NCBI GenBank assembly: GCA_965223505.1
Contig: CBDCWP010000021.1
Location: 256,001 to 320,000, forward strand
Direction of reading: 5' to 3'
Length of the DNA: 64,000 bases
From: Planctomycetota bacterium
Lineage (GTDB): Bacteria; Planctomycetota; PLA2; JAEUHO01
Below the pieces are notes generated by a model. The model was not told the origin of the DNA and did not search any database. It saw only the letters and a program-made list of their open reading frames with translations. The position numbers and the translations under genes are program-made. Of the stretch, positions 50,480 to 58,043 are shown in pieces (position 1 is the first letter of the stretch; the number at the start of each line of letters is the position of its first letter).

Positions 50480-50781
50480 GAGCGGCCGGGCATCGTACGC
50501 GTGGGGTGGGCGCGACGCGCGAAGGCCGCATGTTCAGCCCCCGCGACATCGGCGCGGGGTTCCATCGGACCACCAGCGATCCGAACCTGTTTCTTTCCAA
50601 TGAGTTACGGCCTGGAGGAACACTTCGGCGGGCGTGGGCATGGGCCGTGCGAGAGGCCGGCCCTGTCTTGCGAAGCTCTCGTGGGTGAACGAGAGCGGGC
50701 CGGAGACCTCCGACGGGACGAGAATCGCGAGGACTGGGGATCGGGCCGGAGCCGAAAGGCTCCGGCCCGCTTTCGTTCGGT

Positions 50782-51213
50782 CTAGAACCGCACGAGCAGC
50801 ACGTCGCACGGGGCCTTGCGCATGACGCGCTCCGCCACGCTGCCGATCAGCAGGTGGTCCAGCCGCGAACGGCCGTGGGTCCCCATCACGATCAGGTCCG
50901 GCTCGAGCTCCCGCACGGCCTCCAGGATCACCGTCGCCGGCTTCCCTTCCTTCACCATCGTTCCGAAGTCGTGCTCCGGGTGCGCCCGCGCTTCCTGCTC
51001 GAGCTTCTCCACCGACAGTTGCTTGATCTTGTCGATGTCCTTGCGGTGAGGGTAGATCCCGAACGCGCTCTCCGTCACGACCGGGAGCCACTCCACGACG
51101 TGAAACAACGTGATCTTGCCTTCGGGCGCGGCCACCCGCATCGCCGTCTGAAGGATGCGCTGGGAAGACTCCGCGAAGTCGAGCGGCACCAGGATGTTGT
51201 CAAAGCCCTTCAA
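50782..51213 (-). CDS. Universal stress protein
   Basis: ILVPLDF, DLIVMGTHGR, IGSVAERV..APCDVLLV. Confidence 0.93.
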   Translation of the reverse strand: MKGFDNILVPLDFAESSQRILQTAMRVAAPEGKITLFHVVEWLPVVTESAFGIYPHRKDIDKIKQLSVEKLEQEARAHPEHDFGTMVKEGKPATVILEAVRELEPDLIVMGTHGRSRLDHLLIGSVAERVMRKAPCDVLLVRF

Positions 51214-51256: not shown

Positions 51257-53098
51257 TCACTTGGGCGCAACGAGCCGGTCCCCCGCGACGACGCGACGCG
51301 CATTCAGAAAGTCCTTCACGGCCATCACGCGCCCGCCGGACGGCCGCACCCGCAGGATGCGCAGCACGCCCTCGGCACATGCCACGTCGATGCCCTCCTT
51401 CGATGCCGCCAGCACCGTCCCCGGCCGAACCTCGGTCTGCGTCTGCACGGCCTCGGGATCGACTTGCACGGCCCCCTCGGCCTCCGACGCCGTAGCCGGG
51501 GCGCCCGCCCCCTCCGCCAGCCTGGGATCGTCCGCAGGCGCGCACTCCGCGACGATCAACGGCAACGGCTCGTGCTTCACCTTGGGCTGCCACGCCGTCT
51601 GCGCCCCGGGCCAGCTCGTCACCGAACGAATCTGGTTGTAGACGTCGGCCGCCGGCGCGTCCCAGTCGATCACGCCGTCCTCTTTCGTGAGCTTGCCCAC
51701 GTACGTCGCGGCCTCGTGGTCCTGCTCACTCGGCTCGATCTCGCCGTCCAGGTACGAACCGAGTGTGCGCACGAGCAGGTCGGCGCCGACCTCCGCCAGC
51801 TTCACGGTCAGCTCGTCCGCCGTCTCTGTGCCGTTGAGCTTGATTCCACGCTGCGCCACCATCGGTCCGTGATCGAGCTCCTCGTCCATGACGAAGATCG
51901 TCACGCCCGACTTCTTCTCGCCCGCCCGAATCGCCGCTGCGACCGGACTCGCCCCGCGGTACTTCGGGAGCAGGCTCACGTGCACGTTCAGGCACCCATG
52001 CTTCGGAAGGTCCAGAACACCGCGCCCGAGCTTCTGCCCGAACCCCGCCGTGATGACCACGTCGGGGTTCTCGGCCTTGATCGCATTGCGCGACGTCATC
52101 CCGTTTACGTCGCCCGTTCGATGCAACGGAAGCTCGAGAATCTCCGCCTCCTTGGCGACCGGCACCTCTTGCTTGCGCCGTCCACGGCCCGACTTGCGCG
52201 GCGGCGGCGTCACGACCAGCAGCGGCTTGAAACCCGCGCCCACCAACGACCGCAGTGACGGAACGGCGAAATCGGGCGATCCCATGAACACGACACGGGG
52301 GCCGGCGGGCGCGTCCTCGATCTCGATGTGGTCGAGCGTGTCGGCGGCGAGGTCCTTGTCGACCTCGCCCTGAATCTCCAGGCCGGCTTCCCGCAAGCGA
52401 ACCTGGATGTCGTTCAGGCCCTCCTGCGTAACCTCGACCTTGCGTAGCTTCATCAGCTCCAACAGCGCGAGGAACGCGCCGATCACGTACGTGCGGTCGC
52501 GCTTCGCCCCGATCAGCTCCGTGAAGCTGAGCGCGCCGCCCTCCGACGTGAGGTGATCGAAGATCAACCCGACGAAGTGCGTGATCGGAAGCCGCTCCTT
52601 CGGCATGTGCACCGACTCGTCGTCGCCCGTCTCGCGCATGAGCCGCTGGAAGGCCTCGACGAGCACGAACAAGTCCACCTCGAGCGGATCCTCGGACCGA
52701 TCACGCTGCGCGGCGGGCTGCGTCACCTTCGCCTGACGCTTGTCCCGTTGTTGCGCGGCGCGTTCTTCGAGCTCCGCCGAGATGTGCTTGAAGTCGCGGT
52801 ACTCGATGAGCTGCCGCACGAGGTCGAGCCGCGGATCGATCTCCTCGACATCGACCTCGGTTTCGCGCGGCAGCAGCGCACGGCTCTTCATGACGAGAAG
52901 CTGACTCGCCATGACCAGAAACTCACCGGCCTGGTCGACGTCGAGGTCTTGTACCTGGTTGCGACAGATGTCGAGGAAGCGGTCGGCGATGCGAGCGATC
53001 GAGATCTCGTAGATGTCGACCTCCTCCTGTTGCACGAGGTGCAGGAGCAGGTCCAGGGGGCCTTGAAAAGCGGCTAGATCGACGCGGAGCTCGTCCAT
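51257..53098 (-). CDS. fmt: Fusion protein: segregation/condensation protein A (ScpA kleisin) + methionyl-tRNA formyltransferase
   Basis: N-terminal FQGPLDLLLHL...FLVMASQLL..KSR...FLALLEL (ScpA); from ~52297 RVVFMGSPDFA, NVHVSLLPKYRGASP, DHGP (Fmt); a single uninterrupted ORF. Confidence 0.9.
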   Translation of the reverse strand: MDELRVDLAAFQGPLDLLLHLVQQEEVDIYEISIARIADRFLDICRNQVQDLDVDQAGEFLVMASQLLVMKSRALLPRETEVDVEEIDPRLDLVRQLIEYRDFKHISAELEERAAQQRDKRQAKVTQPAAQRDRSEDPLEVDLFVLVEAFQRLMRETGDDESVHMPKERLPITHFVGLIFDHLTSEGGALSFTELIGAKRDRTYVIGAFLALLELMKLRKVEVTQEGLNDIQVRLREAGLEIQGEVDKDLAADTLDHIEIEDAPAGPRVVFMGSPDFAVPSLRSLVGAGFKPLLVVTPPPRKSGRGRRKQEVPVAKEAEILELPLHRTGDVNGMTSRNAIKAENPDVVITAGFGQKLGRGVLDLPKHGCLNVHVSLLPKYRGASPVAAAIRAGEKKSGVTIFVMDEELDHGPMVAQRGIKLNGTETADELTVKLAEVGADLLVRTLGSYLDGEIEPSEQDHEAATYVGKLTKEDGVIDWDAPAADVYNQIRSVTSWPGAQTAWQPKVKHEPLPLIVAECAPADDPRLAEGAGAPATASEAEGAVQVDPEAVQTQTEVRPGTVLAASKEGIDVACAEGVLRILRVRPSGGRVMAVKDFLNARRVVAGDRLVAPK

Positions 53099-53345: not shown

Positions 53346-53870
53346 ATGCGAAGGATCCGGCTCTTCGCGATGGACGTCGATGGGACCCTCACGGACGGAA
53401 CCATCACGTACACCGCGGATGGCAGCGAGTTGAAGACGTTTCACGCTCGCGACGGCCAAGGCATCAAGCTCCTTCGACTCGCCGGCATCGTCCCGGCGCT
53501 CATCAGCGGGCGCACGTCCGCACACGCCGCACGCCGGGCCGCCGAGCTCGGCATCGAAGAGGTGCACCAGGGCGTGCACGACAAGGCCGCCGTCCTCGAC
53601 GCGTTGTGCGCGCGCATGGGACTCTGTTCCGGCGACGCCGGCTTCATCGGCGACGACCTCTCCGACATTCCGGCCATGCGTCACGCGGGCTTCTCCGCGG
53701 CGCCGGCGAACGCCGCCCCGGAGACGCGCGCCGCCGCGACGTTCGTTTGCTCCGCCGACGGCGGCATGGGCGCCGTTCGTGAAGCGATCGAAGCCCTGCT
53801 TCGTTCCCAGAACCGCTGGGACGACGTCCTGTCCATGCTCGACGCGGCCGCGCAGGAGGCGGGAGCGTGA
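53346..53870 (+). CDS. kdsC: KDO 8-phosphate phosphatase
   Basis: MDVDGTLTDG, F..RDG.GI, IGDDLSD, GG.GAVRE. Confidence 0.9.
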   Translation: MRRIRLFAMDVDGTLTDGTITYTADGSELKTFHARDGQGIKLLRLAGIVPALISGRTSAHAARRAAELGIEEVHQGVHDKAAVLDALCARMGLCSGDAGFIGDDLSDIPAMRHAGFSAAPANAAPETRAAATFVCSADGGMGAVREAIEALLRSQNRWDDVLSMLDAAAQEAGA

Positions 53871-56800
53871 AGCGCGTTCTCACCTTCCTTCTGCTCGCCG
53901 CCGTCGGGATCGGCGTCCTTCTGTGGAAGGCCGGCGATTGGAACGGGATCAGCCCCGAGGAGAGCGACTCGGGCTCGACGACGGAACGCGCCCGCGCACC
54001 GCGCACGGCCGTGACCGGCGACTCGGGCGTCCCCGTGCCCGATGCCGGCGTCACGTTCGGCAAAGGCAGACAGCTCGAGCTCGCCTCGGACGCCGAGTTC
54101 TTCACCTGGAGCGATCCGGAGGCGCCCGACGACATCGTCGAGATTCCGAACTTCATCCGCTACGAGTTCAAGACGGCAGACTTCGAGCCGCTGTCACGGG
54201 ACGACGCGGACCGCCTCGGCGTGCTGTGCCACGACGTCGTGCTGAAGACCTATCGCAATCCGCGCACCCGCGCGGAGGCGCTCGCGGTCAAGCAGGGCCG
54301 GCCCGGCGCGCGCAAGCGACTGTTGAGCCGTGTTTTCACGGCCTCCGAGGCCCGCGCCTACGGGCGCCTCGCGGAGCGCATCGGCGGCGCCGACGACGAG
54401 ATGGACCTGAGCAACGACTCGAAGATCCACCTGACGGGGAACGTCGAGGTCGAAGACCTCGACGAGGACGTCGTCATCACGGGTTCCGACTTGACGGTGA
54501 TGCCGAAGATCGAGTCCGCGTCCGGCGAAGGCCGCTTCGAGCTGGTCCACGACGGCTTCACCATCACCGGCGACGGCCTCGAGCTCGACAAACTCGCCGG
54601 CGACCGCACGCGCATCAAGATCAAGCAAAGCCCGATCTTCGACCTCAAGCGCGACGTGCGCGACAAGCAAGACCGCTCTGTGCTGGGCTTCGAGGAGGGG
54701 GCGTTCCGGCCGAGCTCCATTCGGGCCGAGGGCCACGCCATCGTCATGCGTGACGACTTCGGCAACCAGTCCCAGCTCGAGATCGAATTCCAAAGGCACG
54801 TTCGCGCCGAGCAGGAGGGCGGACGCAGCCTCCACGCTCATCGAATGGTGATGGTCGCGCGCAAGCCGCGCGAGGAGCGCGCGAAGGAAAAGGGCTGGCA
54901 CGTCGACGAAGTGCGCGCCACCGCGATCAAGAACGGCAAGGTTCGTCTGGAGTACGCCGACCAGTCCAACAAGGGAACGTCGCTGCTCTCGGTCTCGGCC
55001 TCACGGCTCAAGCACGTCATGCCCAAGAACGGGCGCTCGACGACGCTGTTGGAAGGCGGCACGGTCTTCGTGTTCCGCGAGGTCCCGCCGGGCGGCGTCG
55101 ACGATCGCTCGAACGGCATGGTTCACGTCTCGTGCCGCCGGCGTGCTTGGATCGGCCCCTACCGTGAGGGCCCGGTGCCCGAGGGGCTGAAGCGTGACGA
55201 GCTGCAACGCATCTCGTTGGTCGGAGACGCGCGCATCGAGCGGCACGGCTCGGTGCGCCGCTCGTTCCAGGACGTGATCTCGGGCGACGAGATCGAGTTC
55301 ATCTTCATGTCCGCGAGCGATCCCTTCACATCACGGCCCACGCGCGCGAATCGCACGGACGGCGAGGAGCCGGGCGGATTGATCGCGGTCGCGTTCACCG
55401 CGCTTGGCAACGTGAACGTCTCCGGCACGCGCGTGAACGGAACCACCGAACGGCTCGTCGCGCGGGCACTGCACACCGAACGGCCTTGGGTGATTGCGTC
55501 CGGACAGGCGACGCGTTTCCGGTTCACGGACATCCGCAACGACCAGCGGCTTCTCGGCGGACAGCCCGCCGTGCAGGCCGACGGAGCGACCGCCCCGGCC
55601 GCCTCCACGAAGGGCGAGTGGAAGCTTCGCTACTTGCGCGCCCGCCAAGACGTGATCGTCCAGACGAGCCTGGGCGGCCCCTCCTTCGGCATTCCGGCGC
55701 GTGTCACCGGCGAGGCCCTGGACTACGACGACCAGACCGGCCTCGCGCAGGTGACGGGGACGCCCGTGGCGCCGGCCTTCCTCTCCGCCGAGGCGGCGAA
55801 CGGAAAGCCCAACACGATTCATGCGCACACGCTCTCGCTTCGCCGCGGCACCGGTCAGGTGACGGCGAACGGCAACGTGCGCAGTGTCATCTTCGTGACG
55901 TCGAAGCGCGGCCAGGGCCCCAGCGGCATGCGCGCCGCGATGCGTAGCGCGCCGCCCAAAGAAGCCGCGGCGCTCGAGATCGAAACCGATCACGAGATCG
56001 ACATCCGAATGGTGCGAACACCCACGGCCATGCGAGCGCAGGAGGACGCGGAGCAGATCATCACCATCAACGGACCGCTCACCGCCGAGCTGCGTGCCAA
56101 CGACCTCACCGTTGACCGGATGCGCGCCCGCTCGATGAAGCTGAGCATGGTGCTCGCCTCGCCCGAGGCGGCGCAGGCCGCGCCCACGACGGCCCGCGCC
56201 GGTTTCGGCCATACCGTTCGCGGCAACGAGCCGACCCGCACCATCCCGGCAGCCGAGATGACCGAGGTCGAGATCGACGCCGCCGAGATCACCGCGAACG
56301 TGCTCACTGACGGCAAGCGCGTCTTCGAAGCGTTCGGCGGCGTCGAGCTTCGCACGGAGATGGGCCGGGTGCTCGGCCAGCGGATGGTGTTCGACGAGAG
56401 CGCGCGCGAAGTTCGGGTCACCGGCAGCGACCAGCACAAGGCGGAAGCCTGGTACGGCACGAGCGAGGCGCGCAATCACGTCGTGTCCGAACAGTTCGTC
56501 CTGCTCCTGGGAGACCACGGAGGCGAGCGCCTCGTCGCGCGCGGCAAGGCCGACGATCCGGTCGTTGCCCGCCTGTACCGCAAGAACCCCGAGACACCGG
56601 GCCGCACCGAGCACTACTTCGTCACGTGCTGGGCCAAGATCACGATCCTCCCCGAGCGGCTCGACGCCGAAGACGTTCGCGTCATCCGAACGATCACCGG
56701 ACAAGGCGCCGACACACAGGCTCGACTGCGCCTGTACGCCAAGCGGCTGCGCGTGACCGGCCGGCACTTCCTATCAGCGGAGGAGACCGATGTACGTCGT

Positions 56801-57055
56801 GTCGTTGCAAGCGGCAAGGACACCTATTTCGGCTCCGGGAGCGGCATCAAGGACGACACGCGGGTTTGGGGCTCGCGCTTCGACCTCGACGTGCCTCGAC
56901 AAGAAGCGACGATTACCGGAACACCGGACGAGGACGTGGTTTTCCAGCACAAGGACGAGGTTCACAGCGAGCAGTCGACGGTTACGATCGATCTCGCCAC
57001 CGGCCTCCCCAAGAACTGGAGAGCTGGAAGGGTGATCCGGAAGAAACCCAAATGA
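53867..57055 (+). CDS. Large LptC/LptA (OstA-like beta-jellyroll) repeat protein
   Basis: N-terminal TM; repeated L.GNV.V / A.G.V strands; coupled to kdsC as in kdsC-lptC-lptA operons. Confidence 0.6.
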   Translation: MKRVLTFLLLAAVGIGVLLWKAGDWNGISPEESDSGSTTERARAPRTAVTGDSGVPVPDAGVTFGKGRQLELASDAEFFTWSDPEAPDDIVEIPNFIRYEFKTADFEPLSRDDADRLGVLCHDVVLKTYRNPRTRAEALAVKQGRPGARKRLLSRVFTASEARAYGRLAERIGGADDEMDLSNDSKIHLTGNVEVEDLDEDVVITGSDLTVMPKIESASGEGRFELVHDGFTITGDGLELDKLAGDRTRIKIKQSPIFDLKRDVRDKQDRSVLGFEEGAFRPSSIRAEGHAIVMRDDFGNQSQLEIEFQRHVRAEQEGGRSLHAHRMVMVARKPREERAKEKGWHVDEVRATAIKNGKVRLEYADQSNKGTSLLSVSASRLKHVMPKNGRSTTLLEGGTVFVFREVPPGGVDDRSNGMVHVSCRRRAWIGPYREGPVPEGLKRDELQRISLVGDARIERHGSVRRSFQDVISGDEIEFIFMSASDPFTSRPTRANRTDGEEPGGLIAVAFTALGNVNVSGTRVNGTTERLVARALHTERPWVIASGQATRFRFTDIRNDQRLLGGQPAVQADGATAPAASTKGEWKLRYLRARQDVIVQTSLGGPSFGIPARVTGEALDYDDQTGLAQVTGTPVAPAFLSAEAANGKPNTIHAHTLSLRRGTGQVTANGNVRSVIFVTSKRGQGPSGMRAAMRSAPPKEAAALEIETDHEIDIRMVRTPTAMRAQEDAEQIITINGPLTAELRANDLTVDRMRARSMKLSMVLASPEAAQAAPTTARAGFGHTVRGNEPTRTIPAAEMTEVEIDAAEITANVLTDGKRVFEAFGGVELRTEMGRVLGQRMVFDESAREVRVTGSDQHKAEAWYGTSEARNHVVSEQFVLLLGDHGGERLVARGKADDPVVARLYRKNPETPGRTEHYFVTCWAKITILPERLDAEDVRVIRTITGQGADTQARLRLYAKRLRVTGRHFLSAEETDVRRVVASGKDTYFGSGSGIKDDTRVWGSRFDLDVPRQEATITGTPDEDVVFQHKDEVHSEQSTVTIDLATGLPKNWRAGRVIRKKPK

Positions 57056-57485: not shown

Positions 57486-58043
57486 CTACTCCTCGGCCTC
57501 GGCCTCGGCGGCGCTCTGTTCCTGCTCGATCTCTTCGCTCACGCGGCGTTCGCCCGTGTCGAAGATCGACTGCCAACTGGTGTCGGACGAGACGTCGACG
57601 ACCTTGACGTTCTCCTGAAGCGCCTGCTGCACCTCTTGGACCTCGGAGACGAAGAAGAAGAGCGAGTTGCCGCACGTCTCGCGCAGGGCCTCGATGGCCT
57701 CGCGCGACGGCGGCTCGACGACCGCGAACGACCAACAGCGGCCGAAGCGGCCCACGGGGACGATCTGGTACTGGTACAGCGTCGACGCGGGCACGCCCTC
57801 GAGCAGACCGGCATCGAACCGGTAGTCGAATAGCGGCAGCACCGGCATCTGGTAGTGGGTCGCGACGGTCTTCGCGAGGTCCCACGCCGTCAGATGGCCG
57901 GCCTCGACCAGTACGGCGCCGAACGGCTCGTTCGACTCGTACGCGGCCTCGACAAGCTCGTCGGCTTGTTCCTGGTTCAGTACGCCCTGGGTGACCAGTA
58001 CGTCCCGCAAGCTGCGGCGGTGAAAGCGCTCAAAGGGGTCCAT
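57486..58043 (-). CDS. Stand-alone MshEN/T2SSE_N-like domain protein
   Basis: LRDVLVTQGVL...FGAVLVEAGHL tandem motif followed by a GspE N-terminal-like fold; no ATPase domain. Confidence 0.65.
   Translation of the reverse strand: MDPFERFHRRSLRDVLVTQGVLNQEQADELVEAAYESNEPFGAVLVEAGHLTAWDLAKTVATHYQMPVLPLFDYRFDAGLLEGVPASTLYQYQIVPVGRFGRCWSFAVVEPPSREAIEALRETCGNSLFFFVSEVQEVQQALQENVKVVDVSSDTSWQSIFDTGERRVSEEIEQEQSAAEAEAEE

Follow-up and report, generated by a model that had tools for sequence, protein, structure and literature searches.

Positions 51257..53098 of the minus strand of the window (the whole 64,000-nucleotide stretch of planctomycete DNA that was analysed) hold a single open frame of 613 aa with no internal stop, the translation of which joins the condensin kleisin ScpA to methionyl-tRNA formyltransferase (Fmt), as supported by Pfam and TIGR00460. 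The ScpA half occupies aa 1-236 (52391..53098, minus strand) and consists of an N-terminal helical domain, a middle region and a C-terminal winged helix (PF02616). It is followed by an acidic linker of 31 aa (aa 237-267; 52298..52390, minus strand) and by the Fmt half (aa 268-613; 51257..52297, minus strand), as delimited by TIGR00460 and alignment to 1fmt. Within the C-terminal domain of Fmt, an alignment of 99 fused proteins (described below) delimits a hypervariable Ala/Pro/acidic loop (aa 522-558; 51425..51535, minus strand). The junction between the halves reads ...IEDAPAGP-RVVFMGSPDFA. A first-pass annotation of this DNA had proposed an in-frame ScpA-Fmt fusion of 613 aa in which Fmt, joined at APAGP-RVVFMGSPDFA, lacks its own start Met, and the uninterrupted frame, the Pfam and TIGR00460 matches to both halves and the junction sequence all bear this out. 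The full ScpA and the acidic nature of the linker also stand, but the lengths given for them (~245 and ~25 aa) do not, the boundary of ScpA falling near aa 236 and the linker comprising 31 aa.

An AlphaFold2 model of the fusion, built on the 99-row alignment, has a mean pLDDT of 84.4 and a pTM of 0.62, with the Fmt half confident, the end domains of ScpA fairly confident and the linker at a pLDDT of ~50. Contigs assembled from public runs agree with the junction, which the first-pass annotation had singled out for checking: one covers the whole stretch (and may be its source), and a 168-nt contig from a second run bridges 52266-52433 with 0 differences, although both come from one sample in one study and their support is not independent.

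Directly downstream of the fusion lies a universal stress protein gene (usp; 50782..51213, minus strand; PF00582), a conserved neighbour in the family. Just 3' of the usp stop, a 12-bp G+C-rich hairpin (50742..50769; scored on the plus strand, a consensus match only) is a possible end of the scpA-fmt/usp transcript, and a promoter scan found no sigma-70-like promoter. The neighbourhood in the family comprises gyrB, an MshEN-domain gene, a tatA-like gene, a large gene, a HAD hydrolase gene, the fusion, usp and a peptidase gene; this order is complete in seven of ten named loci, and the other three match as far as their contigs reach. The large gene, downstream of the HAD hydrolase gene (53867-57055, plus strand), encodes a protein of 1062 aa that has a hydrophobic stretch at its N-terminus and weakly matches LptA/LptD_N towards its end; the gene is found beside the fusion across the family at 30-37% identity. 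The MshEN-domain protein (57486-58043, minus strand) stands alone directly downstream of gyrB, and is likewise conserved in the family.

By its testable features, the N-terminal half appears to be an ordinary member of the ScpA family. SMC_ScpA (PF02616) matches aa 21-234 (profile positions 1-230 of 232; 110 bits), and the PDB ScpA chains 3w6j_A, 4i98_A and 3zgx_C match within aa 1-156. ScpA is described as binding the Smc cap with its C-terminal winged helix and the Smc neck with its N-terminal helical domain (PMC4442127, PMC7055376), and both ends are recognisable here. At the N-terminal end, G13, P14, L15 and L17-L19 are present in 99/99 proteins and 3zgx_C matches aa 1-82, while in the winged helix the cap-binding helix F-L-A-L-L-E-L (F209-L215) is present in 99/99; the modelled winged helix has three helices plus a wing (H172-217, E221-235). 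The middle region, which in ScpA binds ScpB, is covered by the sequence match to 3w6j_A and 4i98_A over aa 6-156. The NCBIfam ScpA equivalog cut-off was missed (best 160 bits versus 315), but this miss says little, since a ScpA domain of unfused type in another planctomycete fell short as well (204 versus 315). The fusion thus shares with the ScpA of Smc-ScpAB condensin the whole Pfam domain, both Smc-binding ends and the presence of smc and scpB in the genome and across the family, but differs in the enzyme of 346 aa attached to the ScpA C-terminus. ScpA with an N-terminal extension is also on record: the long model NF001751/PRK00478, which we take to be the Mycoplasma form, places ScpA from position 161 of 505.

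The C-terminal half similarly appears to be an ordinary member of the Fmt family. Formyl_trans_N (PF00551) matches aa 292-446 and Formyl_trans_C (PF02911) aa 469-601, and the TIGR00460 fmt model covers aa 268-605 at 236.3 bits against a cut-off of 201.5 (profile positions 2-308 of 315). Alignment to 1fmt places R305, N371, H373, D409 and K472 at E. coli R42, N108, H110, D146 and K209. The presumed catalytic residues (E. coli N108, H110 and D146) are retained almost throughout, with N371 in 98/99 proteins and H373 and D409 in 99/99, and the same holds for G304-R305-G306 of the tRNA-recognition loop (99/99), the Arg of which aligns with E. coli R42. Both features that distinguish Fmt from PurN, this Arg and the C-terminal domain, are present, and the modelled half superposes on solved Fmt structures with a TM of 0.92-0.94, Fmt ranking ahead of ArnA. 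Equivalog score, catalytic and tRNA-loop positions and fold are therefore shared with Fmt (TIGR00460; PDB 1fmt/2fmt, 4iqf), whereas the absence of an own start codon, the ScpA in front, the variable C-domain loop and the lack of an adjacent def set the fusion apart. The acidic insertion reported earlier in the C-terminal domain does exist, with ~35 residues more than in E. coli Fmt by the 1fmt alignment, but it is a hypervariable loop and not a conserved element: it measures 37 aa here, against a median of 16 (range 10-63; length SD 9.5) in the 99 proteins, and its column conservation is 0.16. In ArnA and 10-formyl-THF dehydrogenase the formyltransferase fold likewise works within multidomain proteins, but those enzymes join steps of one pathway, while ScpA and Fmt share no known pathway.

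In the source genome, which is 92.5% complete, the fusion is the sole match to PF02616 and, in a class-wide search, the one match to TIGR00460; PF00551 has two matches, the fusion and a 208-aa protein that is PurN-like by sequence. As only one scpA and one fmt were found, both jobs would rest on the fused gene. A full-length smc is encoded on contig C1, scpB on C44 and def on C39, while the window lies on C21, so the earlier statement that neither scpB nor def is adjacent is correct, and the check for other copies that accompanied it finds no further scpA or fmt in this genome, with smc and scpB on other contigs. The separation from scpB differs from most bacterial genomes, in which scpB adjoins scpA according to PMC7055376.

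The fused state characterises the family of the source genome, the members of which are uncultured. The GTDB class contains 40 genomes in two families, the source family (f1, 29 genomes) and its sister (f2, 11 genomes). The genes are fused in all 27 f1 genomes with an assembled junction, the junction being cut by contig ends in the other two (G018 and G021), and in the 28 f1 genomes other than the source smc and scpB were each found in 27. A protein search extended this, as 99 of the best 120 of 8000 scored candidates, including the query, have all three domains. These proteins cover 99-100% of the query, are 580-649 aa long and share 49-84% identity with it; the 98 others come from four sources (JGI, ENA, NCBI and Logan), all named organisms being 'Planctomycetota bacterium', and they settle the earlier concern that the linker might conceal a stop or frameshift. 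When 1.84 billion representatives were searched with a profile, the best 150 matches contained one 50%-identity cluster with the full-length fusion plus fragments, and a second, independent fusion would be expected to have scored among them. Nine shorter database proteins were considered as natural fission products and rejected: five start in mid-protein like contig-edge fragments, three (P0104, P0106 and P0109) are broken within the fusion and have stretches that look out of frame, and the last, an Fmt containing a duplication, is unrelated.

Two f1 genomes of one genus, G016 and G021, also carry a free-standing fmt that scores over the TIGR00460 cut-off and lies downstream of purN-purH (L113:3772-4869 in G016; L112:2974-4044 in G021), which limits the sole-copy status of the fused Fmt to at most 27 of the 29 genomes. 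In the tree it lies apart from the fused Fmt, and may be an acquired copy or co-binned DNA.

Both halves are under purifying selection. From the four closest genome pairs (pN under 0.10) among 25 coding sequences, dN/dS was 0.08 for ScpA, 0.11 and 0.05 for the two Fmt parts and 0.38 for the variable loop; an earlier set of nine pairs, several of them saturated, gave 0.30/0.51/0.31/0.85/0.24, in nearly the same order. The linker too is under purifying selection and not free to drift, with a dN/dS of 0.14 on 20 non-synonymous changes. Its length is 27-34 aa in 97/99 proteins (SD 1.95 aa versus 1.27 for the ScpA middle region), its median net charge is -6, and the model places a low-confidence helix at ~247-256, within which position 255 is L or I in 96/99 proteins.

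We found no description of a ScpA-Fmt fusion in the literature searched, which covered few subscription journals. NCBI names relatives plainly as 'methionyl-tRNA formyltransferase' (e.g. MDJ0974236.1, MCA9315331.1), so that annotation gives no hint of the ScpA half. ScpA-Fmt is a real, conserved and new architecture of known parts, and provides a natural, family-wide example of a kleisin with a housekeeping enzyme attached. By this example, the C-terminus of ScpA would seem able to carry 38 kDa of cargo for long evolutionary periods. The fusion also offers both a molecular marker for f1 and a correction of the Fmt-only annotation.

The unfused relatives point to how the fusion arose. In f2, separate scpA and fmt genes follow one another directly in 10/10 informative genomes (1/11 being cut). 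In five genomes the start of fmt and the stop of scpA overlap (-4 nt), in three fmt starts 3 nt after the stop and in frame, and spacings of +5 and +49 occur in one genome each; the three in-frame genomes are one stop codon short of fusion and still unfused. The unfused f2 ScpA proteins end in tails of 12 to 78 aa. Across the phylum, 251 genomes were searched for scpA and positions were taken from the best 150 matches, which makes this a biased sample; 144 of these lie outside the GTDB class of the source, and 141 have an fmt match too. With contig breaks making the counts lower bounds, fmt follows scpA on the same strand at a distance of no more than 6 kb in at least 48 of the 141 genomes (17 of 64 families) and of no more than 350 nt in at least 22, and tight coupling recurs in seven more families. 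None of the 48 adjacent pairs shares one frame (25 judged on DNA, the rest by differing open-frame lengths), in line with the earlier view of the fusion as lineage-specific. These clusters have the same order and strand as the fusion but, unlike in the fusion, a stop codon still divides the genes and fmt has its own start codon.

What separates scpA from fmt in looser clusters is often a thioredoxin gene, found in 7/7 examined loci with a gap of 440-640 nt (L126, L128, L131, L139, L140, L142 and L143, from five Planctomycetota families). A search of 59 loci with the Def of the source genome, run with a positive control, gave no match between scpA and fmt. An apparent long fmt frame in family f34 was dismissed as a shadow frame of high-GC DNA, another gene lying in between. 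At L136:2167-3549, in the same family, a 460-aa protein without a Pfam match is encoded between scpA and fmt, and f89 has a gap of similar size.

Phylogenetic evidence is consistent with one event. The f1 sequences form one clade in the trees of both halves (SH-aLRT 99-100), although every tree was a quick one built from a subset of sequences (19, 8 and 6 f1 rows), and the deep branches are too weak, for both halves, to establish f1 and f2 as sisters. Transfer of the Fmt half was considered since the quick tree split f1 and f2, and was discarded because a clade of the two was not rejected by the AU test (p-AU 0.46).

The best reading of this evidence is a merger of neighbouring genes, given the abutting or overlapping scpA and fmt in f2 and in other Planctomycetota. 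The simplest history would run from scpA-trxA-fmt to abutting scpA and fmt and then, by one stop loss, to the fusion in the f1 ancestor, its direction following from the confinement of the fused state to one family among many unfused. The relatives would thereby provide a clean series for the origin of a gene fusion: scpA-trxA-fmt, overlapping scpA and fmt, genes in one frame with a single stop between them, and the fusion. In the f1 ancestor, scpA and fmt would have abutted and probably been translationally coupled, as they still are in f2; the scpA stop would then have been lost once, through a point change or small indel at the overlap, joining the genes, turning the former acidic C-terminal tail of ScpA into the linker and removing the fmt start codon. 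The product would be one bifunctional polypeptide, presumably expressed at full length and with both activities, in which ScpA, through its N-terminal helical domain and winged helix, would join ScpB in closing the Smc ring, and the Fmt module on the free ScpA C-terminus would formylate Met-tRNAfMet.

Most copies of the fusion probably work as ordinary soluble Fmt, off the ring, because ScpA exceeds Smc dimers in Bacillus subtilis, if the same applies here; PMC6125636 gives averages of 87 ScpA molecules per cell versus ~30 Smc dimers. B. subtilis ScpA-YFP forms normal foci according to PMC1188057, so that a C-terminal cargo is compatible with localisation. We propose that the fusion persists because both halves are sole copies and fmt has no start of its own, and not because of cross-talk.

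ScpA-Fmt is thus probably a tolerated, locked-in bifunctional protein that arose in one ancient merger, without cross-talk between its halves. In favour of this, family-specific invariant sites are not in excess in the ScpA half (about 20 in f1, range 15-29, versus 26 in f2), and single-genome ScpA frames run into a MurD or a metallo-beta-lactamase fold in two other planctomycetes, although as a singleton the MurD case is a weak precedent. Counting against it are the constraint on the linker, in contrast to the varied tails of unfused f2 ScpA, the absence of any clean reversion to split genes among the 27 f1 genomes, even though three f2 genomes stay unfused one stop codon short of fusion, the extra free-standing fmt of G016 and G021 and the family-specific invariant sites of the Fmt half (about 23 in f1, range 13-38, versus 12 in f2, f1 being slightly less diverse). 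In addition, overlapping gene pairs are richer in subunits of complexes in E. coli (30% versus 7%), according to PMC10666635. The possibility of a neutral gene fusion, raised in the first-pass annotation, therefore survives in part: abutting genes in relatives speak for a merger of neighbours, but family-wide fixation and selection on the linker speak against 'neutral'.

It is unlikely, though worth considering, that the fusion was selected for tying initiator-tRNA formylation to condensin, whether by placing Fmt at Smc-loaded (origin-proximal) chromatin, by letting tRNA or folate binding modulate ring closure or by setting the ratio of the two at 1:1. In that case the long-standing proximity of scpA and fmt would be an earlier, looser form of the same link, and the tight coupling in seven further families, the constrained length and helix of the linker, the fixation of the fusion in 27/27 f1 genomes and the modest surplus of f1-specific Fmt sites would all fit. 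However, the linker is of low confidence in the model (pLDDT ~50; pTM 0.62), f1-specific sites show no excess in ScpA, and in 93 of the 141 sampled relatives the 6 kb downstream of scpA contain no fmt, partly owing to contig breaks. The thioredoxin gene that often lies between the two genes fits a housekeeping operon, and the tRNA on which Fmt acts is diffusible. In a more specific and rather doubtful form of the idea, Smc rings would carry the only Fmt of the cell, so that formylation takes place at the nucleoid or the tRNA and formyl-folate status feeds back on ring closure, and coupled pairs elsewhere would reflect the same interaction. If the halves do communicate, the fusion would directly and physically tie translation initiation to the organisation of the chromosome.

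The preferred reading of a merger without cross-talk takes the polypeptide to be expressed at full length; the release of free Fmt from the same gene, through internal initiation or proteolysis of the linker, appears improbable. The linker is acidic and probably exposed, as cleavage would favour, but the 99 proteins share no conserved cleavage motif in it. Across 28 loci there is no shared in-frame start upstream of Fmt strand 1: candidate ATG, GTG or TTG codons occur 3-12 codons upstream of V270 in 8/28, at varying positions and with a Shine-Dalgarno-like motif at two of the eight, and the window itself has no candidate. As the real 5' ends of these genes often have no obvious Shine-Dalgarno sequence, absence of the motif is weak evidence. 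M272 is invariant (99/99), but was rejected as a hidden start since it lies inside Fmt strand 1 in the model, has no Shine-Dalgarno-like motif in 28/28 loci and occupies a position at which Met is the commonest residue in stand-alone Fmts (59/135). Synonymous conservation is also not raised near the junction.

An assembly or frameshift artefact, or one dead half, has next to no probability: every genome is a metagenome assembly and the three broken proteins mentioned above could hint at such errors, but conservation across genera refutes this explanation, with the fusion recurring at full length in 98 further proteins (49-84% identity) from four sources; both halves are moreover under purifying selection, retain nearly invariant catalytic and kleisin motifs and are sole copies in the source genome.

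Other extensions of ScpA were seen in planctomycetes. In one genome (G072; L117:1704-3908), ScpA and a complete MurD share a 735-aa frame with TIGR01087 over its cut-off; no second example occurred among the 120 homologues listed, and this may be a one-genome event or an error. In another single genome (G191; L116:1170-3113), the ScpA frame runs ~350 aa into a metallo-beta-lactamase-fold domain (PF12706). Five genomes of family f39 (L118, L119, L120, L121 and L123) have ScpA followed in frame by 400-680 aa without a Pfam match, a possible second family-level extension or fusion of ScpA, and in family f55 (L127 and L132) ScpA bears charged C-terminal extensions of 230-440 aa with a similar start.
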